64,000 nucleotides of DNA, taken from contig CM038999.1 of assembly GCA_017499595.2 (NCBI GenBank), positions 1-64,000 of the forward strand, read 5' to 3'. Made by a program: the position numbers and the translations under genes. Each line of letters starts with the position of its first letter. The first letter of the stretch is position 1. Origin of the DNA: Psilocybe cubensis (Eukaryota). Positions 4,418-61,600 of the stretch are shown one piece after another. The notes under the pieces were generated by a model that saw nothing but the letters and a program-made list of their open reading frames with translations, was not told where the DNA came from and did not search any database.

Positions 4418-5128
4418 AAAGAATACTAGCGCGTAAGGCGTAAAGCATTAGAAAAAAAACCCTAACCGTAAGTATTCCTTGCTATAAAGTAACAAACATC
4501 TACTTACAAGCAACACTTTGGATTAAATAGCTAAACCTAAACCCTAAACCCTAAACCCTAAACCCTAACCTAACCCCAACCCTAAGCTAACTAAGTCTAA
4601 CCTTAGTAGGAAGTAAGGTAGGCGTGTGAACTTCCGAACGGCATGTGATTGTGAAGGGCCGGATCTAATTTAGTACATGGGAAAAGTTACTTAGTACTTC
4701 TGGAAAAGTTCCTTAGTACCGTGGAAACATTTTTGATGGACCGGATCATGAACTGTCCAATTAAGATTCACAACAATCAATCATTCTATTGTTTGATTGT
4801 TAGGTAAGGACCCAGGTAAGCTATTTATACTCTAGACATGTGAATATTCCCATGTCGCGGTTACTCGGAGCCACGTAACCAGAGTAATCTATATCCATGT
4901 GATTCACATCACAGTCAATAACCCACGATGTCAAAGAACAAAAGTGTTGGATCCACTTTTGACAGGTTACCATGTGCCACATCGACCCGTGACACTCTGT
5001 TCATCAGAGACCTGTCTAACTTGACAATAAACATTGACAGATTTGTGATAGTCGGTAAGATACATGACAGCTGCGCAGCATCACTTCACGCGCTGTCATC
5101 GGATGTCTAGAACATTCCTTCTAAGAAT

Positions 5129-5193: not shown

Positions 5194-5275
5194 TCTTTCC
5201 ATTTTAACTCCCAGTTTAAACTAGTCGCTCGCACCTCGCTTCGCTCGGTGCTCGCTCCCCCCTAAACCCTAAACC

Positions 5276-5349
5276 CTACTTTCCATTTAACTCCCAGTTT
5301 AAACTAGTCGCTCGCACCTCGCTTCGCTCGGTGCTCGCTCCCCCCCTAA
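5276..5349 (+). mobile_element. 74-bp extremely 5'-truncated retroelement fragment
   Basis: Matches the pLTR terminal segment CTACTTTCCATTT...GCTCCCCCCCTAA of the unit-5 haplotype (23290 onward); telomeric repeats cap its left side. Confidence 0.85.
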
Positions 5350-5944
5350 GCTAACTAAGTCTAACCTTAGTAGGAAGTAAGGTAGGCGTGTGAACTTCCG
5401 AAAGGCATGTGATTGTGAAGGGCCGGATCTAATTTAGTACATGGGAAAAGTTACTTAGTACCTCGGGAAAAGTTCCTTAGTACCGTGGAAACATTTTTGA
5501 TGGACCGGATCATGAACTGTCCAATTAAGATTCACAACAATCAATCAATTGATTATTAGGTAAGGACCCAGGTAAGCTATTTATACTCTTGACATGAGAA
5601 TATTCCCATGTCACGGTTACTCGGAGCCACGTAACCAGAGTATTTTATATCCATGTGATTCACATCACAGTCAATAACCCACGATGTCAAAGAACAAAAG
5701 TGTTGGATCCACTTTTGACAGGTTACCATGTGCCACATCGACCCGTGACACTCTGTTCATCAGAGATCTGTCTAACTTGACAATAAACATTGACAGATTT
5801 GTGATAGTCGGTAAGATACATGACAGCTGCGCAGCATCACTTCACGCGCTGTCATCGGATGTTCCAGAACATTCCTTCTAAGAATAGCCACTGAAGAGTC
5901 TATAAAGACGAAAGGGCTGGCTGCTGATAACAATCAACAGCCCT

Positions 5945-6873
5945 CAAGTACTCGTCCTCTCCCAAACTCCTGCCGCTTGTGCCTTCCCAACTCATCCGGG
6001 AGCCCTTTCGTCACTGATCTTGCCCTTGACTCGGGGACGTTTCATCGACATGTTGGCTGCCTCACGGCAAGCGGGGCCCTTTTTCTTTCACTCGCTCACG
6101 CCTTCTATGTTGGGTTACGGAGGTCATACAAACTCGTTTTAGTCTAGCTGCGGGGTTATCCAGCTATGATGACTTTGTAATTCGAGGGCGCGCAGTTCTT
6201 CAATGGGTATGGACATCAGGTGAGAGTACACTGGGGGTTGTCAGGACCAGCTCTGCTGGATACGCTCCTGGCAAGTCGGTTGCAGCCGGCGACACTACCG
6301 AATTGCTGGGACGTCCTAAAGCTTGTGGGTACCGCCGACCGCTGGAAACAGCCTAGGCACCGGTGGCGACCGGGTATGGTAACAATCCCCAAGATTCAGC
6401 GAAAGCTGGAATGGATAATCAGCAGCGAATCCGTAACGGTCACGCCGACGGAAGCGTTCAACGACTAGGTGGTAGTGGGGTCTTCGGATCTTAAGATATA
6501 GTCTTGGGAGTGGGGAAACCCACATCTGGTATCTAAACCGCGCCTCGCTGCTTACGAGGACGGCCCGAAGTCCAGAACCGCTTAAAACGCGGGTGACCCG
6601 GCCTCCCCTTAGTAAAGGGAGTTAACACAAGGATGGACAAATAGTTCGTCGCCGGAAATGAACCTGTGGCTGTAATGGCTGATGTGGCGCCCCTTGGTAA
6701 AGGGCTTAAAGGGTATTAGCCTGCCATGTCCAATGGCATGAGAGTGTCCCTTGGTAAAGGACTTAATAGGCAATAGCCTGCTCTTTTGTCATGAGCGGTA
6801 TGTAGTGATCGTTTGCCTGTACGGTAGCGCCCATTGCTTGCACTGGTCCACGCCCGTAAAAAATCACGAGCCG
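5945..6873 (+). ncRNA. Group I self-splicing intron (IC1-like, 929 nt, no homing endonuclease ORF) inserted in the hammerhead cleavage triplet
   Basis: Exact insertion relative to empty pLTRs (CAGCCCT|CTGGC): the exon ends in U and the intron ends in G. P AATTGCTGGG 6301; Q AATCAGCAG 6417; R GTTCAACGACTA 6456; S AAGATATAGTC 6493; P3 CACTACC 6293 / GGTAGTG 6471; P9 GAAA-loop hairpin 6510-6523. IGS GGGGTTGT 6234-6241 pairs with exon ACAGCCCT, with U.G at the splice site. Confidence 0.92.
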
Positions 6874-6985
6874 CTGGCCTTCTTTCCATTTAACTCACAG
6901 TTTAAACAAGTCGCTCGCACCTCGCTTCGCTCGGTGCTCGCTCCCCCCCTAAACCCAACGACTTTGCTATTACCCAACAGCTACT

Positions 6986-9900
6986 ATGTCTTCCACTTAC
7001 TCTGCTGCCTTCTCTCGTGCCATGTCCCCCACCCTGGACGCACTCACCCAGGCTGTCGTCAACAACACAGTTTTTGGCGTCAACGACGAAGCTGGCCGCC
7101 ACAACGCCCTCATCGACGAGTTGGCCACTGTCGTCATCAAGAAAATAGCTGAGTGCCGCTCCATTGACCAGATTGTAGACTGCGTCTTTTTTGACTATCG
7201 TGCTGCCCTTAGGGAGTTTCTCCTCAACCTCGCATCGTGGTGCGATAAGAGGGAAACAGTCAAGGCTAGCCTCGAGCGCCTTGAACTTGCCGTTAGCGCA
7301 GGCAACACCCCCAATCGCCTTCGGGTGAAGGCTCCCGAGTTCCAACTTACGAAGGAATTCGCGGATGCCGGGTCAGCGGAAGCTCTTCGAGTTTCCTCTA
7401 CGTTCTCCACCGCTCGTGATGTCTTCCAAAAGGCAATCAACGACGGCGCCATTCAGGCGAAAAAGGACGAACTGGCCTTTTGGGATGATAAATGCGCACT
7501 CAATAACTGTTATGAAGCTGCTGCCCTCATCGTTAAGACAACTTACGATGATCGCAAATCCAGCTATAAGCTCCCCGTTTTCTCTACAGACAACAAGGGA
7601 GTTCGTCGAATAACAGATTGGGTAGTGTCACCGCAGAAGAAGGCTGAATGCAGCGCATTGCAAACCATTTTGCCAGCCATCTTCTCTCATATCAAACAGA
7701 TTGTCAACTTGCGCCACCGCGCTTTGGCAATCAAGATTGAGAAAAAGCGGTCGACTGCGGCAACAGCCGATGTCGAGATGGCCGATGCGACCAAACCAGG
7801 TCCATCGATTCAATCCCTTATTGATAAGGGCTTGAATGCACGTCTCAAGAAGCTCAACCTTGGATCTGTGGGCAAGAAGGCAAGTTCTCGTAACCCTTCA
7901 CCCATAATTCTGGATACTAATTACTATTCTAATTACCCAGACTTTGTCTGGCCAGAATTCGTCCAAGGCTCCTCAACCTCAGGCCAAGAAAGCTGGCCCT
8001 TCGAAATTCAAACCCTCGTCGACGCCTTCGCAGAAGAAGCCCCTAACCAAGGCTTCCAACAAGGTCGACAACAAGAAGAAAGGGAAGGGGAGAGCTCCCG
8101 TCAAGAACGATCCAAAGGGAAAGGGAAAGGCAAGAGCCTAGACGCGCGGTCTAATGTAGTACCTTTTACGTCGGTAAGACCCGCCTTCCCCAACTCTATT
8201 CCTGACGATATACTCACCATGACTAAAACAGACGCAGTTTCTTTTGTACACTTACATACGCCGATCTCATTCTTGTTGGCTGGCCAGTATCGTAGTAGTG
8301 TACACTGTAGTCCTGGTGTGGTGGTCCCTGTAGATATAGCAAATGATTTATCACTCGGACTCAATTATATGTTTTTTACTCTACCTTCTCAAAGTCTGAT
8401 CATGCAAGCATGGAATGATTTTCAACGAAGAATAAGATGGCGTATCTATTTTTTGTTTAAGGAAGGCATGAACAAACCTTTTGATCCAGATTACGGAGTA
8501 AGCTCAAAAAAGAAAGAGAAACCTCCAGTATTACCGCAATACATGGAACTTGGCCTTTCGATGGGACGTCGGTACGTGCAACGCACGATCGCAAGTATCC
8601 CGGAAGAAGCCCTTACGGAGATGCGAAAGCACGCGTTCTCTCCTAAAAGGGACAAGATCCGTAAGTTTCTTATCGATAACAACTATGTTATTACGATGAC
8701 AGATAAGAATCTTGGCCTCGCGGTGTCTGAACGCGACTGGATATTAAGGAATGAGCTCAATCTTCTTGAAGATGAACGTAACTATGAAGAGTTAGAATTC
8801 GAAGTTGCGCAAGAAGTAATGAAGAGCAAAATGATCCAGATGCAAACTCTTGCACGTACCGTCGAAGATGAACATCTGTTTCTATTTGAACTTGGGTTGT
8901 CTCGATTCTTTCTATCGAATGTACCGGAAGACGGATCATCGTTCAAGTATCCTCAATTTCATGGTATACCTAAAATCCACAAAAAACCTACTGGATTTAG
9001 GCCCATAATTCCGTGTCACTCTGTAGTATTTAATCCTGCAGCCAAGTTTGTATCAAAAGAGCTTAAGCCGATTATTAAATCGACTCCTTCAATCATTCAC
9101 GGAACGAAGGATCTCTTTACGAGATTAAGCCAATTGCGTATAGACCCCAAACGACAATGGTATTTTGTCACCGGGGATGTAGTTGCTTTCTATCCCAATA
9201 TTCCGTTGGACTTGTGCATCGAAATCGTTTGTAATATGTACGAGGAATGGTTACTCAACGCTTCGGAAGAAAACACTGCATTAGCCCATATTAATCCAAA
9301 TTCGTTAGAGAATAACTTGGTTAAATTGGGCATCTTTAAACGTGCTATCGAGATTGGCAATACGCAATTGATAACACAACATGGGTCTAGATATTTTAGA
9401 CAAAAAAATGGCCTCGCAATGGGCGTCGCGGATTCTCCGGACCTTGCTAACCTCTTTGGAGCCCATTTTGAAATAAAGTCAAAAATCTTAGACCACCCAA
9501 ACGTGGCCTTCTATGGAAGGTACATCGACGATTGTTTCGCAATTGTTTACGCCGAGTCCGAAGCACTTGCACTTAATCTTATTAAAGAAACAATAAAGTT
9601 CGATGGTTGTGTTATCGAATGGGCTGTTTCCTCGTCGGGATGTCAATTTCTCGATGCTTTCATATTCAAGGAGTCTGGAAAACTTCATTGGAAGCCATTT
9701 GTCAAGACAGGAAACAACCGAGAACGAGTTCCATGGGTATCACATCATCCTTTGGACGTCAAACGTGGCGTCTACATTGGAGAGTTATCCAGGTTAGCCG
9801 TGCTATGTAGTACCAAGGAAATCTACATCGGAGCAATTAGAGACCTTAACGCTCTCTATTTGATGCGCGGTTATCCCGAAAACCTAGTCATGTCTTGGTG

Positions 9901-10516
9901 TAAGAAGAATATACAAGAACGTTGGGAAAAGCGATTCGCTTTACGAGTCGCAGAGCACGACGAATCCATTCTTGTACTTAAAACCAGATTTGATCAGGTA
10001 TGGAATTGGTTTTCAGCTGCTGAACTTGGAAAAACTGTTACCGAGTACTGGTCGGCATGGTATGAACATGCCGAGAAAGGTTTGTATAGTGCAGACTCGT
10101 CCAGACCCCTTATCAAACCAGATCCAAATTACGTTCACGACCTCGATGATGTTCGCCCGGAGCTGTTCACACAGATCCTCGTGGACGGAGAAACTGAGTT
10201 CGTACCGGATTTGAGGAAGATAGGACTACTCGGAAGTCGTTGGATAGTATCGCGAAAACGCAATACTAATCTTTTCGACCTTGCAAATGTGTGGAAGAAA
10301 ACAGTCTTTCGTAAACTGGATGAAGACATCGCTGAAAAAGGTGGTGTTGTTCCCGAAACTCAAAACGTTAATGAAACTTATCATTCTGCTTTAGTTGAAG
10401 CTGCTGAACAGATAAGTATCGAAAGTGATAACGAGATAATACTTCATAGACGTTCAATCTCACAAGAGAGGGAACATCCAGAATTCGGCAGAATATCCAA
10501 ATCTTACAACCGATGA
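6986..10516 (+). CDS. Penelope-like RT polyprotein, 1176 aa; no GIY-YIG endonuclease recognisable
   Basis: RT motifs IPKIHK..FRPII, FVTGDVVAFYPNI, QKNGLAMG, GRYIDD, FLD; PLE-type thumb region (SHHP..VKRG..GELSR). Confidence 0.95.
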   Translation: MSSTYSAAFSRAMSPTLDALTQAVVNNTVFGVNDEAGRHNALIDELATVVIKKIAECRSIDQIVDCVFFDYRAALREFLLNLASWCDKRETVKASLERLELAVSAGNTPNRLRVKAPEFQLTKEFADAGSAEALRVSSTFSTARDVFQKAINDGAIQAKKDELAFWDDKCALNNCYEAAALIVKTTYDDRKSSYKLPVFSTDNKGVRRITDWVVSPQKKAECSALQTILPAIFSHIKQIVNLRHRALAIKIEKKRSTAATADVEMADATKPGPSIQSLIDKGLNARLKKLNLGSVGKKASSRNPSPIILDTNYYSNYPDFVWPEFVQGSSTSGQESWPFEIQTLVDAFAEEAPNQGFQQGRQQEEREGESSRQERSKGKGKGKSLDARSNVVPFTSVRPAFPNSIPDDILTMTKTDAVSFVHLHTPISFLLAGQYRSSVHCSPGVVVPVDIANDLSLGLNYMFFTLPSQSLIMQAWNDFQRRIRWRIYFLFKEGMNKPFDPDYGVSSKKKEKPPVLPQYMELGLSMGRRYVQRTIASIPEEALTEMRKHAFSPKRDKIRKFLIDNNYVITMTDKNLGLAVSERDWILRNELNLLEDERNYEELEFEVAQEVMKSKMIQMQTLARTVEDEHLFLFELGLSRFFLSNVPEDGSSFKYPQFHGIPKIHKKPTGFRPIIPCHSVVFNPAAKFVSKELKPIIKSTPSIIHGTKDLFTRLSQLRIDPKRQWYFVTGDVVAFYPNIPLDLCIEIVCNMYEEWLLNASEENTALAHINPNSLENNLVKLGIFKRAIEIGNTQLITQHGSRYFRQKNGLAMGVADSPDLANLFGAHFEIKSKILDHPNVAFYGRYIDDCFAIVYAESEALALNLIKETIKFDGCVIEWAVSSSGCQFLDAFIFKESGKLHWKPFVKTGNNRERVPWVSHHPLDVKRGVYIGELSRLAVLCSTKEIYIGAIRDLNALYLMRGYPENLVMSWCKKNIQERWEKRFALRVAEHDESILVLKTRFDQVWNWFSAAELGKTVTEYWSAWYEHAEKGLYSADSSRPLIKPDPNYVHDLDDVRPELFTQILVDGETEFVPDLRKIGLLGSRWIVSRKRNTNLFDLANVWKKTVFRKLDEDIAEKGGVVPETQNVNETYHSALVEAAEQISIESDNEIILHRRSISQEREHPEFGRISKSYNR
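7880..7940 (+). other. Putative 61-nt GC-AG spliceosomal intron inside the RT ORF (present in all six units)
   Basis: AAG|GCAAGT donor, TACTAAT/TTCTAAT branch candidates, CCCAG| acceptor. Removal opens a Lys-rich frame ending at TAG 8141. Confidence 0.65.
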
Positions 10517-11963: not shown

Positions 11964-12027
11964 AGCCACTGAAGAGTCTATAAAGACGAAAGGGCTGGTT
12001 GTTGGGATCCCCCAACAGCCCTCTGGC
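11964..12027 (+). ncRNA. Hammerhead ribozyme (intact), 5' pLTR of unit 3
   Basis: Same motif. Confidence 0.88.
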
Positions 12028-17198: not shown

Positions 17199-18127
17199 CA
17201 AGTACTCGTCCTCTCCCAAACTCCTGCCGCTTGTGCCTTCCCAACTCATCCGGGAGCCCTTTCGTCACTGATCTTGCCCTTGACTCGGGGACGTTTCATC
17301 GACATGTTGGCTGCCTCACGGCAAGCGGGGCCCTTTTTCTTTCACTCGCTCACGCCTTCTATGTTGGGTTACGGAGGTCATACAAACTCGTTTTAGTCTA
17401 GCTGCGGGGATATCCAGCTATGATGACTTTGTAATTCGAGGGCGCGCAGTTCTTCAATGGGTATGGACATCAGGTGAGAGTACACTGGGGGTTGTCAGGA
17501 CCAGCTCTGCTGGATACGCTCCTGGCAAGTCGGTTGCAGCCGGCGACACTACCGAATTGCTGGGACGTCCTAAAGCTTGTGGGTACCGCCGACCGCTGGA
17601 AACAGCCTAGGCACCGGTGGCGACCGGGTATGGTAACAATCCCCAAGATTCAGCGAAAGCTGGAATGGATAATCAGCAGCGAATCCGTAACGGTCACGCC
17701 GACGGAAGCGTTCAACGACTAGGTGGTAGTGGGGTCTTCGGATCTTAAGATATAGTCTTGGGAGTGGGGAAACCCACATCTGGTATCTAAACCGCGCCTC
17801 GCTGCTTACGAGGACGGCCCGAAGTCCAGAACCGCTTAAAACGCGGGTGACCCGGCCTCCCCTTAGTAAAGGGAGTTAACACAAGGATGGACAAATAGTT
17901 CGTCGCCGGAAATGAACCTGTGGCTGTAATGGCTGATGTGGCGCCCCTTGGTAAAGGGCTTAAAGGGTATTAGCCTGCCATGTCCAATGGCATGAGAGTG
18001 TCCCTTGGTAAAGGACTTAATAGGCAATAGCCTGCTCTTTTGTCATGAGCGGTATGTAGTGATCGTTTGCCTGTACGGTAGCGCCCATTGCTTGCACTGG
18101 TCCACGCCCGTAAAAAATCACGAGCCG
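17199..18127 (+). ncRNA. Group I intron copy 2 (929 nt) in the hammerhead cleavage triplet
   Basis: Near-identical to 5945-6873 with the same junctions. Confidence 0.92.
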
Positions 18128-28453: not shown

Positions 28454-29382
28454 CAAGTACTCGTCCTCTCCCAAACTCCTGCCGCTTGTGCCTTCCCAAC
28501 TCATCCGGGAGCCCTTTCGTCACTGATCTTGCCCTTGACTCGGGGACGTTTCATCGACATGTTGGCTGCCTCACGGCAAGCGGGGCCCTTTTTCTTTCAC
28601 TCGCTCACGCCTTCTATGTTGGGTTACGGAGGTCATACAAACTCGTTTTAGTCTAGCTGCGGGGTTATCCAGCTATGATGACTTTGTAATTCGAGGGCGC
28701 GCAGTTCTTCAATGGGTATGGACATCAGGTGAGAGTACACTGGGGGTTGTCAGGACCAGCTCTGCTGGATACGCTCCTGGCAAGTCGGTTGCAGCCGGCG
28801 ACACTACCGAATTGCTGGGACGTCCTAAAGCTTGTGGGTACCGCCGACCGCTGGAAACAGCCTAGGCACCGGTGGCGACCGGGTATGGTAACAATCCCCA
28901 AGATTCAGCGAAAGCTGGAATGGATAATCAGCAGCGAATCCGTAACGGTCACGCCGACGGAAGCGTTCAACGACTAGGTGGTAGTGGGGTCTTCGGATCT
29001 TAAGATATAGTCTTGGGAGTGGGGAAACCCACATCTGGTATCTAAACCGCGCCTCGCTGCTTACGAGGACGGCCCGAAGTCCAGAACCGCTTAAAACGCG
29101 GGTGACCCGGCCTCCCCTTAGTAAAGGGAGTTAACACAAGGATGGACAAATAGTTCGTCGCCGGAAATGAACCTGTGGCTGTAATGGCTGATGTGGCGCC
29201 CCTTGGTAAAGGGCTTAAAGGGTATTAGCCTGCCATGTCCAATGGCATGAGAGTGTCCCTTGGTAAAGGACTTAATAGGCAATAGCCTGCTCTTTTGTCA
29301 TGAGCGGTATGTAGTGATCGTTTGCCTGTACGGTAGCGCCCATTGCTTGCACTGGTCCACGCCCGTAAAAAATCACGAGCCG
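28454..29382 (+). ncRNA. Group I intron copy 3 (929 nt) in the hammerhead cleavage triplet
   Basis: Same sequence and junctions, here in a haplotype-A pLTR. Confidence 0.92.
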
Positions 29383-33874: not shown

Positions 33875-33970
33875 CCCTAAACCCTAAACCCTAAACCCTA
33901 AACCCTAAACCCTAAACCCTAAACCCTAAACCCTAACCCTAAACCCTAAACCCTAAACCCTAAACCCTAA
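33875..33970. repeat. Interstitial telomeric tract (former chromosome end)
   Basis: About 13 CCCTAAA units. Confidence 0.95.
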
Positions 33971-34335: not shown

Positions 34336-35594
34336 CCCTTATCAAACCAGATCCAAATTACGTTCACGACCTCGATGATGTTCGCCCGGAGCTGTTCACA
34401 CAGATCCTCGTGGACGGAGAAACTGAGTTCGTACCGGATTTGAGGAAGATAGGACTACTCGGAAGTCGTTGGATAGTATCGCGAAAGCGCAATACTAATC
34501 TTTTCGACCTTGCAAATGTGTGGAAGAAAACAGTTTTTCGTAAACTGGATGAAGACATTGCCGAAAAAGGTGGTGTTGTTCCCGAAACTCAAAACGTTAA
34601 TGAAACTTATCATTCTGCTCTAGTTGAAGCTGCTGAACAGATAAGTATCGAAAGCGATAACGAGATAATACTTCATAGACGTTCAATCTCACAAGAGAGG
34701 GAACATCCAGAATTCGGCAGAATATCCAAATCTTACAACCGATGAAAAGAATACTAGCGCTTAAGGCGTAAAGCATTAGAAAAAAACCCTAACCGTAAGT
34801 ATTCATTGCTATAAAGTAACAAACATCTACTTACAAGCAACACATTGGATTAAATAGCTAAACCTAAACCTAAACCCTAAACCCTAAACCCTAAGCCCTA
34901 ACCTAACCCCAACCCTAAGCTAACTAAGTCTAACCTTAGTAGGAAGTAAGGTAGGCGTGTGAACTTCCGAACGGCATGTGATTGTGAAGGGCCGGATCTA
35001 ATTTAGTACATGGGAAAAGTTACTTAGTACTTCGGGAAAAGTTCCTTAGTACCGTGGAAACATTTTTGATGGACCGGATCATGAACTGTCCAATTAAGAT
35101 TCACAACAATCAATCAATTGATTGTTAGGTAAGGACCCAGGTAAGCTATTTATACTCTTGACATGTGAATATTCCCATGTCGCGGTTACTCGGAGCCACG
35201 TAACCAGAGTAATCTATATCCATGTGATTCACATCACAGTCAATAACCCACGATGTCAAAGAACAAAAGTGTTGGATCCACTTTTGACAGGTTACCATGT
35301 GCCACATTGACCCGTGACACTCTGTTCATCAGAGACCTGTCTAACTTGACAATAAACATTGACAGATTTGTGATAGTCGGTAAGATACATGACAGCTGCA
35401 CAGCATCACTTCACGCGCTGTCATCGGATGTCTAGAACATTCCTTCTAAGAATAGCCACTGAAGAGTCTATAAAGACGAAAGGGCTGGTTGTTGGTACCC
35501 CCCAACAGCCCTCTGGCCTTCTTTCCATTTAACTCACAGTTTAAACAAGTCGCTCGCACCTCGCTTCGCTCGGTGCTCGCTCCCCCCCTAAACC
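34336..35594 (+). mobile_element. 5'-truncated innermost unit (ORF 3' end to 34745, 3' UTR, pLTR, hammerhead at 35454-35517)
   Basis: Starts inside the ORF at CCCTTATCAAACC, capped by telomeric tract 34293-34338. Confidence 0.9.
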
Positions 35595-35684
35595 CTAAAC
35601 CCTAAACCCTAAACCCTAGACCCTAAACCCTAAACCCTAAAACCCTAAAACCCTAAACCCTAAACCCTAAACCCTAAACCCTAA
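35586..35684. repeat. Basal (ancestral) telomeric tract with variant units
   Basis: CCCTAAA units with CCCTAGA and CCCTAAAA variants; non-array sequence follows. Confidence 0.95.
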
Positions 35685-38600
35685 TTGCACTGTATTGGAT
35701 CGACCATGTCTTGTAATCTTCTCGCGCAATGAAATGATTTCTCTCGAACTCTCCCCTCAGTTTCACTTTCACCCGCTGCCCATATTCCTGGTGTGCGCTT
35801 TAGCAATGAAAGGTTTTTGGTATGTCGCATGGTGCCGTTGCAATTTCACATTAATATCTCCCCAGGGACCAGAAACACTCACACTCCCGCATATAATCGC
35901 CCCACCTCGTCATTCAGATTAATTCAAAGTCCGGCCACTTTGGTTCGATTCCATGGGCTTGAAAGCGCTCGGAGAATACAGAAAAAAGAACGCTAATTTC
36001 TCGCACATTACCCACAGGGATTGTTCAAAATCGAGATGTTCGATGACGAGTAACATATGTTTGTTCTCTGTTTTTCAGGACAAATTTTGTATCAAACTAA
36101 CCCACCCTCTCCTCTCTCCCATCCAGCTACTTCACATTCCCCAGCGCGTACCGCTGAGAAAGATGACGCACCATCCTCCTGCGCCAAACTTCCAGACATC
36201 CCAGACGAAACGACAGGAATTCTGCAGACGCCCTTGATCTGCGCTTGACACATCGTCTGTCTTCCCGGGCAGCCATGCCATTAAGATGGATATGTGCTCC
36301 GGGGGTTCTCAAGGTCAAGAATAGCGTGGGCAGGCCGAGGAAGGGTTAGAAGGCGGATACATTGTGCGTGGTTGCAGTTATGCTCAAGGTCATCCTATTC
36401 ATCTGGATTCAGCGTGTGCCCGTGGGATTGGGAATGTCTTCTGACATTGACGGACTTGTGGGTGCGTTTGGATTTTCATTTTTTTATCAACGTCAGTGCA
36501 CTAGCTTGGTATATTTCTCTCACGATGCCCGCACCGTCGCAATTCGCTTCCACAGTCCATCCACTGTATCTACCTCCCCATAGTTTCCACAGCTCCCTTC
36601 TGAACGTTGACTTGGCGTTGTTAAACAGATTATCATTCGGGTTGTTAGCTATAGCTCTCAGTCTCTTGTTACTTCCATCTCCGCAAGTGCCACCACCACC
36701 GCATTCCCCACCTCTGCTACATCCTTACGTCCACCTCATCAGTTTTTAGGGTGCCAGTAAGTACCTCCTCATTCACCTCGTTGGCTGCAGACTCCCCGTT
36801 TATCACAAGTGACGGGCGTTGTAAGACGTGTCCCGTCTTCTGTGTATTGATATGCGTTGACGTAGGAAGCTGGTGACCCAGGTCACTCACATCGCCTGCC
36901 GGTCTACCGTACGGCATCTGAATCTTGTATTATAATATTGTGAGTGCCGTGCTCTTTTTTCGTGTATTTCATTTTGCTACGACACCAACTCGCCTTTCGT
37001 TTCACGCTTCTATGTAGACCGTAACAATTAAATATATTTCAGATAACTGTGCCCGTCACCCTCTAATTGGAAAGATGTGAGATATCGTAACCGGCAAGTT
37101 TTTATTTCCATGATACATGTCTTTTGCTTCTCATCACTGGTTCGCAAGACCCATTTAACCAACAAAAATCATTTCCAACAGACGTACGGAGAGAGCTCCC
37201 TTTGTCGACTATTCATCACCACACGTCAACGATGGTGATACACCATCCCAATGGCATACATCAACATCGACATGAATACCCGCATGAACATTACTGCCAT
37301 ACACAGCTACGCGCGCTTGGGATACAGCTGGCGAAAGCAGTGTTTGAGGCGGTTTGAGGATGATACTAGGTTCGTTGATCTTTTGGGTGCGTTATCCTTG
37401 CTGGCATGGTTGCGTCTCTCCATGTGTGCTTGAGACGCGTTTCTGACTTGAAACTTGTATCTCGCTGCTTGATTTTCACTTTCCCTATCTCATCGCATCC
37501 CACTCGTGGCGGTGCATTTGTACATTAATGGACATCCAGTAGACTGTATATTTTTCAATGGATGAATGTATATGACAGGTCGCGAGGGTTCAAATGTTGT
37601 AAGGAGGGTACCAAAGTCTATCAATTCAAACGCATATAATGGCTTGAAAGGTGAGGAAAGAACTCCACCTCCACACAGTCCATGGTCCAACGTTCGCTAT
37701 ACCGAGATCTCAGAAATAGTACACAACTTCCTTCACTTACGGAACACCGCCAATTTGATTTCATACAAGACGTCTGAGAGCCTCCGCTTGATATTGTCCG
37801 AATTCTCAAAATGCAAGCCAAAGACGAGCCAGTTAGGCTTGTTTACTCCCCCTGCGTAGACTGGATCCGAGTAAAGCACAAGGAGACTCGAAATTGGGTG
37901 GATGGTTCTCGATATGCGTGAACCAGAGGTAAATGAGGGTAAAAGAACGGTGAATCGGACAGGATCCATGCAAAATTTCCTTGAATTTCAATGAATTGGA
38001 AGCATTCCTAAAGGAAGAGGTTAATTTGTTACTCACGGATGTATACCCCCTCGTTCTTTTCTGTGCCTTTGATATACTGAAGTGTGTGCCAGCGCGGCGG
38101 GCAGGCGGTGGTAGTGATGTTGTTGGAAAGAACAAGACCGTCAATTTTTGACCTGCGAAAGCATTTTGAGAGACAGTTACAGACCATGACGTAGAGCACT
38201 TGCAAATAGCGAGTTCTACCTGTCAACGTTGCGACCAGACTCTTCAAATTGGTCCCCCTCTTTGCAGTTAGATGGTGATGGCGGCGGACCGGACTGAGCG
38301 CATGTTCTAACACCCTGCTGGAAGGCTGTTGAGCCGTCTTCAGCTTCAAATACACTGGGTGCTCCGGGAATTTTATCGTGCAAGCAAGTGGAGGAAGTGC
38401 GGACGGTGAATGAGGACGGAACGCAGGCACGCAAACTCGAATCATCAGAAGAGGACAAAATTCAGAGAGCGATTACGCACCTTCAACCAGAGCTTACTGC
38501 ACCATCAAACTGCCATCAGCCTTCTCCAATCTCTATCAGGTAGTGGGTCCGGAGCCCCAGCTACCAGCTGAAAGCGCATACTGCTATTTAAAAGGATCAA

Positions 38601-38994
38601 GGACGGGTTGATCGAGATCTCGCAAGAAAGAGTTCACGAATCACAAACCCAAGTCTTTTAAAGCGGAGATTGAAAGGCCTCTCATGCCCGCAACTGTCAG
38701 AATGACAAATAATATACACCGCGCCATTCAAAGTGTCAATTCATTTGCGCTTTTCCCATTACATGTTCATCTATTGATGTATATAGGGCAGTAGTTAATG
38801 CACAATTCACTTTTAGCATACACATACTTACCATCTGATGCGGTTTAACACTCAATCTCAATACAATAAGAGATAATGATACAAACTTAATAAAATGTAT
38901 TTTAACAAACCCGAAGCACGAAAATAAGGATACAGCAGTGAGTATAACTAAAAAAGGGATATTGTACAAACACTTGTCAAGACACAAATGCATT

Positions 38995-39920
38995 TTCACC
39001 TGTGTCCATGGATCTTGGTCACGTCGAGGACCCAATAGTCTCCCGTCTTCCCATCACGCTCAATTCGCCTGAATTGAGGCAGATGTGTGAGGTACCCATG
39101 AAGTGTTCCCTAAGCAAAACAATATGGTCAATATTAAATCATTTAAAAAATATCAATGTACTTACACGCCATCCAACATTAGGAGTCTGTGTATTTGCTA
39201 GCACATTCTCTGAGCAGCAGAGAATGAGCATTAGGGAGTTTACTTTGCTATTCCGAACCCATGGAGTCACAGCGACGGCCGACCTGGCCGATGTACCAAC
39301 TCATTAGTTTTTGGACAAGACCTAAGGAGTAAAGTTGACATACATTTGATGAGCGCTGTGGGCCTATTTTCCTTTGTGATGTATGTAGACTGAACTTGAC
39401 GGTACATAGGAAGTTGACATGGAGTAAACAGAGAAGGTGGCAGTGGGTGTAGATGTGGCAGTGAATGTAAGAGATAATGAGGGATAGTAGTTCGAGTAGG
39501 CGTAAGGGGTACCAATATACCATGCAGTACTGACCGTAGGCTGGTACATATCGGAAAGGTCTCCGAAGTAAGGGGAAAGGATGCGGGCCAGCAGGCGTAC
39601 TGCTTGTGTTCTCGTCGCCGCTTAGTGTGCCAGAAGCAAACCAAGAGTTGCCAGGCAGCCGAGGTTCCTGGTGAACCCGCTCTTTCTGCTGTGTTGCATC
39701 CTCCGACAAGTATACTTTAAGGTCTGATAATTGTTATTGATTTGTTCTGGTATTGAAACTGTCCGACTCACACTCGGACTCGTCGTCGAAATTTACGTAG
39801 CCCTCCAGTTCCTTATACCACTTCTCGGTCTGATCCACCGCTGCGTCCGAGTCTGGTGAATACTCAATTGCAGGGCCACCTTCTCTCCGGGAAGTCTGTG
39901 AGTACTGCATTGGCGTCGTC
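38995..39920 (-). pseudogene. Decayed paralog of the forkhead-like gene at 41895-43016
   Basis: ~38710-40010 is collinear with ~41615-43105 but has deletions inside the winged-helix exon (near 39205 and 39270). Confidence 0.6.
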
Positions 39921-40337
39921 AGTGTATGTGGTGTTCTGGATATGAAAAAAACGGGGAAGTGCAGGAGAAAGGATCAAATCAGAGAGGGCAATGGCGAGAT
40001 GGACAAAAAGGAAACGATGATTACCGAATCGTCAGATCACCATGTTCCCTGGTTGAACGACTAGACGATTCCCAACCACTCAAGGTTTGGGAGGAGGTGG
40101 TGTAGCTTCCCATGCTATCAAGCCAATCAATCATAGGTGGATATCGAGTTCGGGAAGGGGTGTGATGCGTCAAAGGAGGTGAAGAAATGGACTATCAGTG
40201 ATAAATTGAGCTGTGAACGTAACAGCATATGCACCTCTACTTCCGCCAGAGTGTCTGTCTCGGTGTAGGAAGCTGTATGGATGAATCTCCTTGTTATCTA
40301 CATAGTGCTCCATCTCCTGATTTCGCGTTACTGAGGT

Positions 40338-41190
40338 GTAGCAATAGACAGATAAAATAAGATGTGTGATACAAGTGCAATTTCAGGGGTTCCAAACTAA
40401 GAGCGAGCATTATGCGTGTAGCATTAAACGGCGACGATGGGGTGCAGCTGGTGTAAAGTCACAGACTGAAATCTTTATCAACAATCACTGATATTCTTTC
40501 TGCTTAGTGTACATGACAGTATCTCACTACAGGTATAAAACCTCCCTATTGTCCATGTGCCATACGATCCGAAGCTGCTATAGCTCCTTGAGTGTTTCTC
40601 TCACCACGCCCTTCAACCAAATTGTAGCCGGCTATGGATATATACACTCGTACCGGCACGGAACCACGAGGCTCATACTGAGAATCCGTTTAGTATTCTC
40701 AGACAATTTTCTTCGGCCGATGCAATACTGTGCAATACTCATATGTACAAAGAAAGTGTTCACAAGAGGAGTTGAGGTCGAAGATGCTAGAAGCCAAAGA
40801 CCGTGGGAAACCTCATGGGCCCTGGCCTGCCGATGCTACCGTTAAACGCATGGTATCCTTGTATCGAACTCTAAATCCCATCAACAAATTTTTCGGTCTT
40901 GCCGTTTTAAATGTGTGCGCATACATACTACCTTGTTTTTGTGGGGCGGCCTGATGAATGACACAATCTGTCAATCTGTGAGTGTGGCAGATGAATTAAA
41001 AACACTTATTTATAATAACCTATTGGTGTATAACAGACTATTGGACTCTATTGTGGACAACAAGGACAATTTTGAGGAAGATATGGTTAGAGAAACAGAG
41101 CTATCGAGAGATGAAGGTGCAGATAGCCGTTTTGACATGGTGAACAAAATCCTGGTATGGCCTGTAAGCGTAACTCGAGTCATAATGTTT
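40338..41190. repeat. Dispersed duplication, copy 1 (partner ~57497-58325)
   Basis: Shared TAGCAATAGACAGATAAAATAAGATGTGTG... segment; near-identical for ~240 bp, then diverging. Confidence 0.85.
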
Positions 41191-41894
41191 TTTCGTAATA
41201 AGAAATTCAATGACAGGTAATTTCGATGAGAGAAAGACTCATACCGTATGTATCATTGATCCAATTTGTGGGATTGGCAATCAGGTGATATCAACAGTAG
41301 CTAAGCGTGCTTCTTTGTCGCTCGCGGCTGTACGGCTCGCAGTGTCTGAATCCTCGACACCGACTTGTTTAAAGTTTTATCTGTAATTAAAATAATACCT
41401 CACTCCTGGGATACTTCCTCGGACTGTAAATACACGAGCTCTGGTAAGCAATGTGACGTAAACGCTCCCCCAAACATGTCCATTGTATGTGTGAAACCAA
41501 TGTTGCTGTAGGTGGAATACATTTTATAACCGGCAAGCTGTAGTAACTTTGGTGTGTACGTTGCAAGGTCAGTAAACCAATCAGCAACTAATTCGAGGAC
41601 ATAAAATAGCAAGAAATAATATATACCGCGCGATTCAAAGTGTCAATCCATCTTTTCCCATTACATGTTCATCCATTGATGTATAAAGGGCAGTAGTTGA
41701 TGCACAACTCACTTTTATCCACATACTTACCATCTGATGCGGTTTAACACTCAATCTCAATACAATAAGAGATAATGATACAAACTTAATAAAATGTATT
41801 TTAACAAACCCAAAGCACAAAAATAAGGATACAGCAGTGAGTATAACTAAAAAAGAGATATTGTACAAACACTTGTCAAGACACAAAGGCATTT

Positions 41895-43016
41895 TCACCT
41901 GTGTCCATGGATCTTGGTCACGTCAAGGACCCAATAGTCTCCCTTCTTCCCATCACGCTCAATTCGCCTGAATTGAGGCAGATGGGTGAGGTACCCACGA
42001 AGTGTTCCCTAAGCAATACAATATGGTCAGTATTAAATCATTTAAAAAATATACATTTACTTACACACCATCCAGAATTAGAAGTCCGTGTATTTGCCAG
42101 CACCGGATACCTCTTTACCAAGAAGTTTATTATTTCCTGTACTGTTGCTCCATTACTCTCTGAGCAGCAGAGAACAAGCATCAGGGTGTCTATTTCTTTG
42201 TATCGAACCCATGGAGTGACATCCACGGGCCACGCATCTTCAATTGCAACATCGCGGGGGATGTTGAGAATGTCACGAATGATGTTCTCCGTGTCCTCCT
42301 GCGACGGCAATGAATCTTCTTCTTCACGGCTTAGCCTCCCTGTCCCGCCCGAAACACGCTTTGCTGCCGTACTACCAGCAGCTGTCCGTCTACGACGGCC
42401 AACCTGGCCAACGTACCACCTTATTAGTTATCGGACGAGACCTAAGGAATAAAATTGACATGCCTTTGATGATCTCTGTGGGCCTATTGTTCCTTGTGAT
42501 ATGTTTACACTGGAGGCGGAAGGTATGCAGGAAGTTGAGTAAGGGGAGATGGTGGCAGCGGGTGTAGATGTAGGAGCGAATGTATGACATGAGGAAGAAT
42601 AGTTGTTTGAGTAGGCATAAGGGTTACTGATATACCATGCAGTATAGACCGTAGGCTGGTACACATCGGATAGGTCAGTTGACATCTGATACACAAGATA
42701 TCCGAGAGCACAATACCGCGGGACTCCTCCGAAGTAAGGGGAAAGGCTGCAGGGCAGCAGGCCCACCGCTCGTGTTCTCGCCGCCGCTTAGTGTGCCCGA
42801 AGCAAACCAAGAGTCGCCAGGCAGCCGAGATTCCTGGTAATCCCCCTCTTTCTGCTCTGTTGCCTCATGCTCGGACTCGTCATTGAAATTCACGTATCTC
42901 TCCATTTCTTGGCACCACCGTTTGATCTGCTCCTCTGTTGGTTTTGAGTCTTGTGAATGGAAAATCCTAAGGCCATCTTGGCTCCGAGAAGTATCTGAAC
43001 ACTGTGTTTGCTTCAT
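41895..43016 (-). CDS. Multi-exon gene with a divergent forkhead/winged-helix domain
   Basis: ...LVLCCSESNGATVQEIINFLVKRYPVL...SGWC, then a GT-AG intron (42064-42009), then GTLRGYLTHLPQFRRIERDGKKGDYWVLD. Resembles the forkhead pattern LTLxEIY..YP..GW.NSIRHNLS..F.K..R..GKG.YW. Upstream exons are approximate. Confidence 0.6.
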
Positions 43017-57300: not shown

Positions 57301-57496
57301 ATTGAAGAATCGATAAGAAAATCAACTTTATCAGAGGGGAGTGTACTCACCATCCCATAGCTCAGAGAACAGCAGATCATGGCCCAAGGGATAATCAAGA
57401 AAGCCATAATCGTACGTATTGCTGGAATCCATTTCTGGGTTGGATATACTGGCTTGGGGTAGCGATGTAGATGTGGGAAGGGGGCGGGAATGGTTT

Positions 57497-58325
57497 GTAG
57501 CAATAGACAGATAAAATAAGATGTGTGATACAAGTGCAATGTCAGGGGTTCCAAACTACGAGCGAGCATTATGCGTGTAGCATTAAACGGCGACGATGGG
57601 GTGCAGCTGGTGTAAATTCACAGTCTGAAATCTTTATCAACAATCACTGATATTCTTTCTGCTTAGTGTGCATGACAGTATCTCACTACAGGTATAAAAC
57701 CTCCCTATTGTCCATGTGCCATACGATCCGAAGCTGCACGAGCTGCCTTGATGTTTTTCTCACCATGTCCTTCCGAATTGTCGCCGGCTATTATAGATAC
57801 ATACGCTCGTACCGGGACAGAACCACGAGGCTCATGCTGAGAATCCGTTTAGTAATCCCAGACCAGTTTTTTCAGCCGACGCAATACTCATATTTACTAA
57901 GAAAACGTTCCCAAAAGAGAGGAGTTGAGGTTCAAGATGCTAGAGGTCGAAGACGGCTAGGAACATCATAGGCCCTGGCCTGTCAGCTGAAGGGAAGGCG
58001 AAGGTATGCAGCCATTAAAATTATGATATCCCAGTATCAAATTTCAAAACCCGTCGATGAATATCTCGGCTTTGGCACTTTAAATTTGTGCGCCTAAGTA
58101 CTAGCTTGCTTCCGTGTGGAGGTCTAACGAGTGACGCAATCTGTCAGTCTCTGAACTATGGCAGATAGGTTAGCAGCACTTATTTATAATAGCCTATTAG
58201 TGCGTAATGGACTATTGAAGGGCGGCCAGAGAAACGAACTAGCCAGGCATTTATTTGCAGATACCATGTTGACGGTATCCACAATCCTGGTATGGCCTGT
58301 AAGAATAACTCGGGACATAATGTAT
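57497..58325. repeat. Dispersed duplication, copy 2 (partner ~40338-41190)
   Basis: See copy 1. Confidence 0.85.
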
Positions 58326-58601: not shown

Positions 58602-61600
58602 CTAAATCCAGGTATGAGTACGTAAGGGTTTACAGAAAGAGAATATCCGCACCCCCAAAAATTGCATTGTCAAGTCACAGAATCCAGACGGAGGTCTCCA
58701 TCGATATTTACGATCCAGTTTATGCCAGATATAGTGCAGTAACCTAATCTTCGTTAGGTTCTCTTGTGTTGGGATTGCGTAAGGCATGCACTGGAGCAAT
58801 GATAGGAAATGTTTATCTCGGAAGTCCATCCAGTATACTCTACCACCTTGGTCCAAGATGCCATAGTGCTTTGATACAAGTACATTGAGAAGAAATGTGG
58901 CAAGATGGGGATACCAATCCAAGGCTACGATGGGCAAAACAGGGTGTCGGGTACCCAGTAATTGGTTAATCTCCAACACTGAGTGGAAGAGACGAATCCA
59001 TGTGAGCCACAACTCACTGGTACCACCTCCAGCTCTTATATTCTCCGAGAGGATGTATTTACCGTCGAGCGTCGGAGATATACCCATAATGTGGTGGTTG
59101 TACTGCCTTCCAGAATCTTTGGCAGTAAGGAAGTACGACGAGTGTTCGATGTACAGTGATATGAGTGCCGAAAATGTGGTTTTAGCAGCCGCTTCGAATT
59201 TTACAATAAGCATACTGTCGTGTTCCTCGAGTACATGCCTATTTGTTCCGGTCTATGACCCGATAAAATTAGTGTACGTGTCGGGGGTAGCGACTGAATA
59301 AAAAATACCAATTGTCTGTGAAGCCAACCCAATGAAGCGTTCGCAAATTGCGGCAAGTATTGGGGCAGCTTAGGCAGCTGTGGATGAATCAGAATATGTA
59401 GTATAGTCATCCTGTGAGAATTTTGGAGATATTCTCTTGAACGGATATCAGATCGTGCTGGATTATGCAAGAAGCGGACCACTTCGTTCAATGGGGACTC
59501 CAACGTAGCTTCCGTCCCGTTGAAGAGTTGATTAAGAAGTTCGATCACACGAACCAGACCTGGAGTTTCCCACTCTGCTACTAGGGCTGGAGGTAGGTAT
59601 GTACTCGATACTTTGTCAATCTCCTTCTCGAATACGTCGAGAATGATTTCCACGTGTCCCCGATCTTTGTAACAGAAGATATTGACAATACCGTGTATGT
59701 CTTGGAGCTCTGATACAATGGCATCATTCGTAATATGCATTTCTGCGCCTATGTCCAGGATGTCAAAAGATGATGTATCCCTCCGCCAGCTTTGCCTAAC
59801 AAGATACCCGAGAATGGGCCCGTCAAGAGAGGTAGCCTCGAGAACCTGCTGGACTGAGATGGTCAATGCCAACATGACAGGACGTTGAAGTGATTGAAGT
59901 AGATCCAGTAGAGGCTTTAACCCTTGCGCTGGTGTCAATTCCCTCCAACTCTGATCCCGTAGTATACATCTCTGGAACGTTGAAAGGATCCATAATATGT
60001 GCTTTGATCGAGGTATTTTTCTGTCTGCTTCGGATAATACCCCTTCAAGTGCTTCGTGTAGATATTTGAGCTCTTGAATAATAATATCCATGTCTGAGCT
60101 TGGAAGTTCCACGAGGCTATATAGGATAGTTGAAACAGTTGGAAAAGAAAAACCTAGGTGATATTGTGACGGTCCAATACTGTAGTAATTGAATATCAAT
60201 AATTAAAACCAATATGCCGTCACGAAAGGTATACCGATTAATTATTCCATCAATGTCAGGATTGCCATGTAGCAATTCTATCAAGTGCCGTATAATAACA
60301 CAAAATGCGTGAATCGACGTGGACCATTCGTTGACCAGAAATTTCCCGGATCTAGAAGAATCTTTTAGAAACTCTTCAAACGATAGGTGATGGAACGACA
60401 GCCATGGCGTATCATATCTCGGGGTCCCAAACGTTGGTATCAGTCTTTGTAAAAGTGGAGGGTATTTGGATTCTGTTGTGCAAATCAAAGATCGCATGGA
60501 TCGCAAAATTTGACGCAGCTCCGAAGGAGAAACATTAAAAATCAGCTCCATGACACTTTCCGAGTTGCTGTAAGGGGTGCACAAAATGGCACCCAGAACA
60601 CGTTTAAGCGCATCCCATCGTGGATACGATGACAAAATGGAGGCATACAACTGGTCCAGTTCGGAGAATGCAAGAGCGTCATGAGGACCAGGTCTGATCA
60701 ATATGCGAAGCTGTTCGAGGGGGTCACAGTGTAGGGAATCACCAATGAATTTTACGACGGTGGATGCATAAACAAATTGTCCAGATGCAGACCTGACGAA
60801 TCGGTCGATGAGGTGGTCCTCGGGCCATGGCCGAGGGACAGAATGCATTATTTCGATGTTTTCTTCATATATCCTATTAAATTCACTGCGTAGGTAGATT
60901 TCTATTCCAGCGTCGGCTTCAAGGTCGTCCCGCAAAGAAACACGTTTCACGATAGAGCTGAAACACCCGGTCTCGAACACATCGGCTATCCAGTACTCTG
61001 GACGACTGATAATCAGGAAGCGCAATGGGATGCGATGCTGAATAATAGCATTCGCAATGGTGGACAAGATTGCGACCTGCATACGCTTCTCTCCAGAGCA
61101 CTCGTCCAGGCCGTCAATGATGACCACTGGGTGGTGGGCGGGCCAATTGCGCACTTTGGTGAGAGGTCTGATAATAAGATTTTGAAGTTGAATATTGATC
61201 AATTTGGTGGGAAGTGTAGGATTCTCCTGCATGACGGTATCGAGTATGACACGGTATTCGGGGAAATTGATGGCAAGCTCGTGAGCAATGGTGGAAAATA
61301 GCTTGTTCCCGTCTCCGCGTCCAGGAGCTCCCTTTGCAAAGAAAAAGCTCGAGCCATATCTGCGATCAGCAGAACGCTCTTGTAACATCATGGCAATGGA
61401 GTGTCCTATTGCTGATTTTCCGGCACCTGCGGGACCATAGAGCCACAGGGCTTGCTTCTCAGGAGCCGGGTCGTCAATCCACTCCATAATGGTCTTAATA
61501 ACCCTCTCCCGAGTACCTGGGTGGCATTGAGCTGGCGGAAATCGCTCCGCAGAGTCGTATATTGCATCGGAGGCTACGTATTTCTCGAGTAGATGTAAAC

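Follow-up and report, generated by a model that had tools for sequence, protein, structure and literature searches.

The 64-kb window analysed here, a stretch of 64,000 nucleotides at a chromosome end, contains a group I intron that carries an exact 12-nt complement to the hammerhead ribozyme (HH) that it interrupts. The locus raises the question of whether this complement is a selected part of the intron, which would bind the exon and decide which of the two ribozymes folds, or whether it is a chance match. It also raises the question of how a group I intron came to lie at this site.

The retroelement array and its hammerheads

The window opens with telomere repeats, and further telomere tracts were found between retroelement copies (for example at 4533-4570, 5262-5278, 33875-33968 and 35585-35685). 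The copies are arranged head-to-tail over about 35.7 kb with short telomere tracts between them and are followed by unique DNA, the innermost copy being 5'-truncated. [quoted passage not shown] The repeat is made up of a telomere-like tract, about 600 nt, the HH and about 70 nt, and it ends in CCCCCCUAAACCC. The (CCCTAA)n repeats were observed both at the start of the window and after the HH-plus-70-nt ends of successive copies, which is telomere attachment of the Coprina type.

1-160, + strand: telomere repeats (CCCTAA)n, read at the window start
6986-10516, + strand: intact retroelement ORF of 1176 aa with a YIDD motif, a putative reverse transcriptase (RT), from its translation

The ORF is 1176-1177 aa long across the copies and is intact in five of the six full-length ones, including all three located downstream of introns. 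RT-like blocks, YIDD among them, are visible in its translation. The database proteins that match it at 99-100% identity are named from Psilocybe cubensis, either as reverse-transcriptase-domain or as hypothetical proteins. Near-identical database proteins carry a precomputed PF00078 assignment and one is named 'reverse transcriptase domain-containing'. A Pfam hmmscan of the ORF gave no family even at E 10, and a PDB search with it gave no match. The elements were assigned to the endonuclease-less Penelope-like group (Athena/Coprina) because of the telomere attachment, the single RT ORF without an endonuclease match and the HH located beside reverse-complement telomere repeats. It is well supported that the window is a nuclear chromosome end with an array of such elements of the Coprina type. 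Parts of PMC8557442 and PMC4209133 describe telomere attachment and a hammerhead beside a reverse-complement telomere tract for endonuclease-less Penelope-like elements, and a part of the latter paper describes type I hammerheads with a large helix III in the fungal ones.

A total of fourteen type I HH copies were found in the window, where eleven are intron-less and three are interrupted (with CTGA at 5891, 17145 and 28400). The first interrupted copy is divided as follows, its 3' part being placed by comparison with intact copies.

5880-5944, + strand: HH 5' part, with the stem I 5' strand (5880-5890), CUGAAGA (5891-5897), stem II hairpin (5898-5909), GAAA (5910-5913) and stem III hairpin (5913-5944)
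6874-6884, + strand: HH 3' part, with C17 (6874) and the stem I 3' strand (6875-6884)

Stem III at 5913-5944 is formed by the A15.1-U16.1 pair plus GGGCUG/CAGCCC, and the predicted cut between C6874 and U6875 is located 1 nt past the splice junction. Intact copies read as the stem I 5' strand AAGAAUAGCCA (ending in AGCCA), CUGAAGA, GUC(UAUAAA)GAC, GAAA and GGGCUG...CAGCCC-U-C followed, after the cut, by UGGCY UUCUU. These copies show the CUGANGA core, GAAA, three stems, the A15.1-U16.1 pair and H17 before stem I that define the type I motif. The base of stem III is constant across copies and its distal part is variable, with versions A and B, a third version in the copy at 35459 and a fourth in a sequencing run from a related organism (run X10). 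Intact copies align to the full length of RAGATH-1-hammerhead (RF03152) at 23-29 bits against a gathering score of 56.3, and the RF00008 score is 19.5 bits against 48.5; no Rfam HH match at gathering level was found in the 64-kb window. Within the intron, no Rfam hammerhead match was obtained at E up to 10, and a search by eye for a second hammerhead using intron strands found none. The hammerhead of a related fungal element, from Serpula lacrymans, cleaves in vitro according to a part of PMC4209133. We infer that the HH described here and the intron ribozyme are both active.

Boundaries and structure of the group I intron

It is well supported that a 929-nt group I intron with a 270-nt insertion in the P1 loop splits the terminal-repeat HH in three of the 14 copies. 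The three introns score 73, 73 and 70.9 bits with Rfam RF00028, where the gathering score is 50.

5945-6873, + strand: group I intron copy 1, 929 nt, from the 73-bit Rfam RF00028 match and, for its boundaries, comparison with the 11 intron-less HH copies
17199-18127, + strand: intron copy 2, with a single difference from copy 1, T>A at the equivalent of 6156
28454-29382, + strand: intron copy 3, identical to copy 1 and located in host lineage B
5937-5953, + strand: P1 5' strand, with exon part 5937-5944 and intron part 5945-5953, from the minimum-energy fold of 5866-6300
5954-6223, + strand: P1-loop insertion, 270 nt, non-coding, including a hairpin at 6149-6181, from folds
6224-6241, + strand: P1 3' strand, which is the internal guide sequence, with P2 directly 3' of it, from folds
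6242-6525, + strand: P2, P2.1 and the catalytic core P3-P9, with a long P5 extension at about 6319-6409, from the Rfam alignment and local folds
6526-6873, + strand: 3' peripheral extension with repeated hairpin modules of the CCCUUGGUAAAGGG type, ending in the omega G, from sequence and folds

The boundaries implied by the initial annotation were confirmed by comparing the three interrupted copies with their intron-less paralogues. The paralogues read CAGCCCT-CTGGCC, and the interrupted copies have 929 nt ending in GAGCCG between CAGCCCT and CTGGCC. The boundary could be shifted by one base, and the present placement was chosen because it satisfies the group I rules, with U as the last base of the 5' exon and G as that of the intron. 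As RNA, the junctions are CAGCCCU/CAAGU at the 5' splice site and GAGCCG/CUGGCC at the 3' splice site. The intron sits between U16.1 and C17 of the HH, with U5944 (U16.1) as the exon end and G6873 as the omega G.

The guide sequence proper is located at 6232-6241 and pairs with 5937-5946, where U5944.G6234 forms the splice-site pair. Together with a 6-bp extension (5948-5953 with 6224-6229) this gives a P1 helix of 16 bp with a duplex energy of -24.4 kcal/mol. Both the U.G splice-site pair and the terminal G are thus found at boundaries that were set independently through the intron-less paralogues. CAGCCCU serves twice, in HH stem III as the 3' strand and in P1 as the exon strand, in agreement with what had been proposed for it. 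P1 was predicted with a pairing probability (P) of 0.80-0.97 in four of the seven transcripts that are long enough to contain it, and with 0.407, 0.874 and 0.044 in the other three, in a nested model that trades P1 against the 12-bp helix described below. No change is listed at 6224-6241 in the three listed related contigs that span the whole P1 3' strand (record 17 of run X9 and records 3 and 4 of X10). P10, in which the guide would pair with the 3' exon, seems to be weak or absent, as by eye it consists of C6874-G6233 and scattered pairs.

The hairpin at 6149-6181 in the P1-loop insertion is hypervariable in the related organism, with a variant in X10 that carries 13 changes. Rfam placed its first hairpin, taken as P1, at 6152-6176. 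This placement was rejected, as the X10 variant has the 13 changes there and copy 2 of the window has one. GGGGUU at 6153-6158 was also rejected as the guide because the splice site that it implies conflicts with the intron-less paralogues; the whole hexamer lies inside the X10 variant, where five of its six bases differ, and one differs in copy 2. No ORF of homing-endonuclease size was found in the intron, the longest stop-to-stop frames being 95-108 aa and crossing the RNA core.

Words of the intron were found in runs from seven organisms in six studies, and the intron is 98-99% identical in the four runs compared (X9, X10, X11 and X12). One of the changes, U>C at position 6489, converts a G.U pair in P8 to G-C. 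One X10 contig, covering 6356-6914, spans the 3' splice junction, and intron-less joined forms are present in X9 and X12. Of the words of the intron, a fraction of 0.00-0.04 is present in RNA-labelled runs. A joined exon form would not prove splicing since intron-less copies exist in the DNA. A metagenome scan with a 16-nt junction pattern, which is too short for the size of the database, returned 120 stretches, none of which shares more with the 1.1-kb query (blastn, E 1e-3), and thus gave no distant homologue.

The 12-nt complement and the proposed competition for the 5' exon

The initial annotation reported that 6001-6012 is the exact reverse complement of 5907-5918, and direct reading gives the same result, with GACGAAAGGGCT in the exon and AGCCCTTTCGTC in the intron. 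A script search returned the same two strands.

5907-5918, + strand: exon strand of the 12-bp complement (GACGAAAGGGCU)
6001-6012, + strand: intron strand of the 12-bp complement (AGCCCUUUCGUC)

The complement stops at both ends, where A5906 faces A6013 and G5919 faces G6000. It is the longest exon-intron complement found by the script; the next is one of 9 nt (5920-5928 with 6418-6426, in host variant A only), followed by 7 nt. The exon strand is located 27-38 nt upstream of the 5' splice site and the intron strand 57-68 nt into the intron. In the HH, the exon strand consists of the 3' strand of stem II (GAC, 5907-5909), G12 to A15.1 (GAAA, 5910-5913) and the 5' strand of stem III (GGGCU, 5914-5918). 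It had been described as the GAAA core plus the 5' strand of stem III, to which the stem II strand is to be added. It covers all the unpaired HH core bases on its side and does not vary among the 14 HH copies in the window.

When the intron was shuffled by mononucleotides, a perfect complement of at least 12 nt to the 85-nt 5' flank occurred in 6 of 2000 trials. With dinucleotides preserved, a helix free of interruptions (G.U allowed) and with an energy of -20.8 kcal/mol or lower occurred in 20 of 1000. The local-alignment score observed between the P1-loop insertion and the whole 767-nt repeat was attained in 14 of 500 trials in which the insertion was shuffled. By loose gapped duplex energy the intron is not unusual, with 584 of 1000 shuffles reaching the observed value, and this statistic was judged to be uninformative. 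The complement is real and moderately unlikely to occur by chance (about 0.003-0.03 if the post-hoc choice of the feature is left out of account), which is suggestive and not decisive.

The complement might nevertheless be functionless, with the intron splicing (or not) regardless of it, and this possibility stands close behind the selected exon-binding helix that we tentatively prefer. Depending on the search space, 0.3%-3% of shuffles reproduce the complement, and the loose duplex measure is not significant. Moreover, 11-mers are common between the intron and the rest of the window, the feature was picked by eye out of 64 kb, P1 is strong enough alone and the models show no gain in accessibility. 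A chance origin has more difficulty with the 12-mer being the sole exact match of at least 12 nt, on either strand, between the intron and the rest of the window, with its target being the HH core strand less than 40 nt from the splice site, and with its location in a lineage-specific P1-loop insertion.

The P1-loop insertion might also derive from an inverted fragment of the retroelement repeat, with the 12-mer as its remnant. Inverted partial copies are known for such elements, a part of PMC8557442 recording inverted truncated copies that adjoin the upstream repeat of Penelope-like elements. However, the reverse-complemented insertion aligns with the 767-nt repeat as the bare 12-mer without any extension, and blastn-short adds nothing. 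Since no wider inverted similarity to the repeat was found around the 12-mer by either search, an origin of this kind is very unlikely, and we give it the least weight of all the explanations.

Folding models were used to follow the competition for the exon. The 12-bp helix (-20.8 kcal/mol) was predicted with P 0.96-0.97 in every modelled transcript ending at 6012-6223, in both host variants. The fold foreseen in the initial annotation was obtained in one respect, as the helix forms once 6012 has been made (P about 0.97) and canonical stem III is lost, but the exon strand was not freed. With the helix in place, the models abolish canonical stem III and the HH core would be unable to form. The strands follow each other in the order 5907-5918, 5937-5953, 6001-6012 and 6224-6241, with loops of 18, 47 and 211 nt. 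Because the 12-bp helix and P1 cross, the nested model trades one against the other once the guide appears. The two helices can coexist as a pseudoknot, which we infer from the strand order and which is outside the scoring of the nested model.

The exact mechanism first proposed was that the antisense removes the competing stem III strand and so makes CAGCCCU accessible to the guide. The loss of canonical stem III in the models agrees with it, and kinetic help during transcription is conceivable. In the models, however, CAGCC re-pairs with GGYUG at 5919-5923 with P 0.98-0.996 whether or not the 12-bp helix is present. Opening 5937-5944 takes more energy when the 12-mer is the real one than when it is any of 40 shuffled versions, and this holds for both host variants (8.78 kcal/mol where the shuffled mean is 6.36, and 9.87 where it is 8.92). 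Canonical stem III is also already disfavoured before the 12-mer is transcribed, with P 0.003-0.016. These results carry a serious caveat, since the nearest-neighbour model that gives them predicts the intact HH's own stem III with P 0.001-0.004 and cannot judge folds stabilised by tertiary interactions. This mechanism is improbable in its exact form. It is partly supported as a whole, in that the competition and the helix are plausible and the freeing of the exon is not supported. Furthermore, P1 (-24.4 kcal/mol) outcompetes stem III (-11.2 and -17.2 kcal/mol) on its own and the 12-bp helix is therefore thermodynamically dispensable. The accessibility of the 12-mer in the free intron is average (mean unpaired probability 0.35, median 0.37).

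AGCCCU at 6001-6006 repeats the end of the 5' exon (5939-5944) and could pair with the guide at -12.1 kcal/mol; it could act as a decoy or as a circularisation site. The Tetrahymena intron, which forms truncated circles, provides the model for a further explanation of the 12-mer, where this hexamer binds the guide and marks the place at which the excised intron would circularise or undergo cryptic cleavage, the other six bases being incidental. The repeated hexamer and its duplex energy fit such a site, but it accounts for only six of the 12 bases, the bases past U6006 do not extend a P1-like helix and the 12-bp helix with the exon is much stronger. We regard this explanation as distinctly unlikely.

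Our preferred reading, held tentatively and at somewhat less than even probability, is that the 12-mer is a selected second exon-binding segment that silences the HH core and tethers the exon or a target. The helix may form in vivo and may itself be under selection. Such a segment is favoured because the complement is exact and near the splice site, the shuffle rates are low, the helix has a P of 0.96-0.97 and the unpaired HH core bases on that side are all covered. It is also favoured because an intron is present at the same site in two host lineages and because the 12-mer is unchanged in an X11 contig (5976-6177), the only related contig that covers 6001-6012, the other three runs having no cover there. 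The retention in X11 carries no weight of its own, as the divergence is so low, and covariation is impossible because the exon side is frozen by the HH. Counted against a selected segment are the modest p-values (up to 0.03), the post-hoc choice of the feature, the ordinary loose duplex energy, the sufficiency of P1 alone, the exon strand that is not freed in the models and the average accessibility of the 12-mer.

If the selected segment acts as we propose, the 12-mer would pair with the catalytic strand of the HH, namely the stem II 3' strand, G12-A15.1 and the stem III 5' strand. The helix would arise once transcription has passed the 5' splice site by about 60 nt, and it would block the HH core and canonical stem III while tying the 5' exon to the intron. 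The guide sequence would then take CAGCCCU into P1, so that the 12-bp helix and P1 together make up the pseudoknot. Ligation would release the exons, allowing the HH to re-form and to cut 1 nt past the splice junction. By pairing through the 12-mer, the free intron might also capture un-cut HH RNA for reverse splicing.

Recent spread and comparison with known systems

The host repeats belong to two lineages that are 96.1-96.9% identical, lineage A containing introns 1 and 2 and lineage B containing intron 3. Compared with the intron-less copy at 11969, the host of intron 3 is 100% identical over 550 nt upstream and 99.8% over 1200 nt downstream, and it is 96.5% identical upstream and 92.2% downstream to the host of intron 1. 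Introns 1 and 3 are identical at 929 of 929 positions, where about 33-72 differences would be expected at the host divergence of 3.5-7.8%. On the upstream side the nearest host difference is 11 nt from the intron and on the downstream side it is 14 nt away, which limits the shared flank to at most 10 and 13 nt respectively. Copy-specific differences fall at 5921-5934 and 6887-6991. Since identical introns are present in diverged hosts, two host lineages recently acquired the intron or exchanged it between them. Its movement was recent and site-specific. The initial annotation suggested that the intron would be adapted to its host site rather than a recent accidental insertion. The copies are in fact recent and identical across diverged hosts, but their repeated insertion at one position in two lineages is a sign that the site is specific.

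A simple explanation of this spread would be reverse splicing and subsequent copying into DNA by the RT of the element itself, and a very short gene-conversion tract is an alternative route. In a more speculative reading, which we consider to have a minor chance of being right, the intron would be an RNA-level homing element on the HH. Its two-part guide, made up of the 8-9-nt internal guide and the 12-nt antisense, would seize un-cut HH RNA, block its self-cleavage and reverse-splice between U16.1 and C17, and the retroelement RT would then write the intron into the chromosome end. The parts of the reviews PMC3679873 and PMC8395846 that bear on their distribution have nuclear group I introns confined to rDNA, and section 6 of PMC3679873 has the full pathway of reverse splicing, reverse transcription and integration as still without evidence. 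If true, the homing reading would make this the first group I intron in nature to complete the route through reverse splicing and reverse transcription, and the first such nuclear intron to be located outside rDNA. The intron described here resides in an RNA that is reverse-transcribed within the life cycle of its host, and it appeared recently at the same site in two host lineages with almost no co-converted flank. Because of this host RNA and this recent appearance, the question of reverse splicing can be tested directly in a fungus that grows in culture.

The 12-mer is a real feature whose role is plausible but unproven. A more remarkable result, and a very unusual system, is a nuclear group I intron outside rDNA that was recently mobile and splits an HH in a telomeric retroelement. 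In the parts of the literature that our search reached, we found no paper with a group I intron in a Penelope-like element or in a hammerhead. The present elements resemble Coprina/Athena elements in telomere attachment, reverse-complement telomere tracts adjoining the hammerhead, a single RT ORF, terminal repeats and the type I hammerhead, features given in parts of PMC8557442 and PMC4209133. The papers that we found mention no group I intron for Coprina/Athena elements, whose known introns are spliceosomal, and the intron here is of group I.

The intron itself resembles the nuclear rDNA group I introns (Tetrahymena-type, with P2/P2.1 and a P5 extension). It shares with them the 73-bit Rfam core, the U.G pair at the 5' splice site, the terminal G, a guide directly 5' of P2, peripheral extensions and optional presence at a fixed site. 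It differs in having the HH of a telomeric retroelement as its host instead of an rRNA, and in carrying the 270-nt non-coding P1-loop insertion and no endonuclease gene. In the Tetrahymena pre-rRNA, Woodson and Cech reportedly described an alternative 5' exon hairpin, P(-1), that competes with P1. In both systems the strand required by P1 is tied up in an exon hairpin, and the choice between the two helices depends on a third strand. The third strand is upstream rRNA in Tetrahymena whereas it would be inside the intron in the present case, where the exon hairpin is also part of another ribozyme.

Twin-ribozyme introns (GIR1 and GIR2, in Didymium and Naegleria) likewise combine two interlocked ribozymes, with the folding of one dependent on the processing of the other, as described in parts of PMC1464144 and PMC3679873. 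Both of those ribozymes are intronic and group I-like, while the second ribozyme here is an HH located in the exons and rebuilt by splicing. The result is a ribozyme nested in a ribozyme, where splicing would restore the HH and the predicted cut is one base from the ligation junction. Group II introns recognise their exons in a bipartite manner through EBS1 and EBS2. The likeness is that two intron segments pair with two exon segments upstream of the splice site, in forward and in reverse splicing, although group II is another intron class and the second pairing proposed here comes from one 12-mer. If functional, this 12-nt antisense would give the intron an additional element for exon binding, of which no counterpart is described among group I introns, and would make a natural anti-ribozyme.

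Probable intron spread between host lineages

The 929-nt group I intron that splits the hammerhead of a Penelope-like retroelement was compared, together with its flanks, at its three sites (5945-6873, 17199-18127 and 28454-29382), and between the two host lineages it was found to match at 929/929 positions. These two intron-bearing lineages, which are repeat variants of the retroelement, have diverged by 3.5% upstream and 7.8% downstream, and the flank common to the intron hosts of both lineages is limited to ≤10 and ≤13 nt. Intron identity in diverged hosts that have so little flank in common points to a recent and site-specific spread of the intron. The route would be reverse splicing followed by reverse transcription, or a very short conversion tract.

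The chromosome-end array and its surroundings

The array at the chromosome end (1-35685) was observed to consist of successive additions of retroelement units, each terminating in a hammerhead, about 70 nt and CCCCCCUAAACCC, to which (CCCTAA)n is attached. An 11.26-kb higher-order repeat, present three times, results from the alternation of full-length units (~4.4 kb from hammerhead to hammerhead) with repeat-only units (~0.75 kb), and the innermost copy (34341-35585) is 5'-truncated. For the intact retroelement ORF at 6986-10516, a Pfam hmmscan returned zero families up to E 10, and near-identical database proteins carry the precomputed families PF00078, PF28514 and PF26215. Two ORFs are located in the unique DNA past the array, and features beyond the array are as follows:

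60117-61487, (-) strand, ORF with NPHP3_N/NACHT NTPase domain (E 1.4e-22)
59201-60091, (-) strand, adjoining 296-aa ORF (Pfam: no match)
38707-39204 and 41614-42103, dispersed repeat pair
40337-40829 and 57496-57982, dispersed repeat pair

Pairing in the hammerhead and the intron

Nearest-neighbour folding of the intact hammerhead motif favoured non-hammerhead pairings, with canonical stems at P <0.01 and stem II at P 0.13-0.21. In the model, the 5' strand of stem I pairs instead with the 5' strand of stem III (5886-5889 with 5915-5918) and, in intron-less copies, GAAAGGGC pairs with GCCUUCUUUC of the 3' flank (5910-5918 with 6876-6886). The hammerhead may be metastable or reliant on tertiary contacts.

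Three similar hairpin modules are found in the intron 3' extension:

6603-6621, CCCUUAGUAAAGGG type
6689-6725, CCCUUGGUAAAGGG type
6746-6781, CCUUGGUAAAGG type

Each of the last two is followed by a UAUUAGCCUGC / CAAUAGCCUGC segment, an arrangement that resembles the duplication of a ~57-nt module.

Within the P1-loop insertion, the hairpin at 6149-6181 is hypervariable; one variant in X10, a sequencing run of a related organism, has 13 substitutions and a 2-nt deletion there, and T>A at 6156 occurs in intron copy 2 and in two other such runs (X9 and X11). The insertion also holds a second antisense (6075-6083) against the same hammerhead core as the 12-mer at 6001-6012, and weaker than it. 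Its GCCCUUU is an exact complement of 5911-5917, extending to 9-10 pairs once G.U is allowed; taken alone, this match is at chance level. The antisense sits within a hairpin followed by a U-run, which together bear a weak Rfam likeness to a bacterial sRNA terminator.
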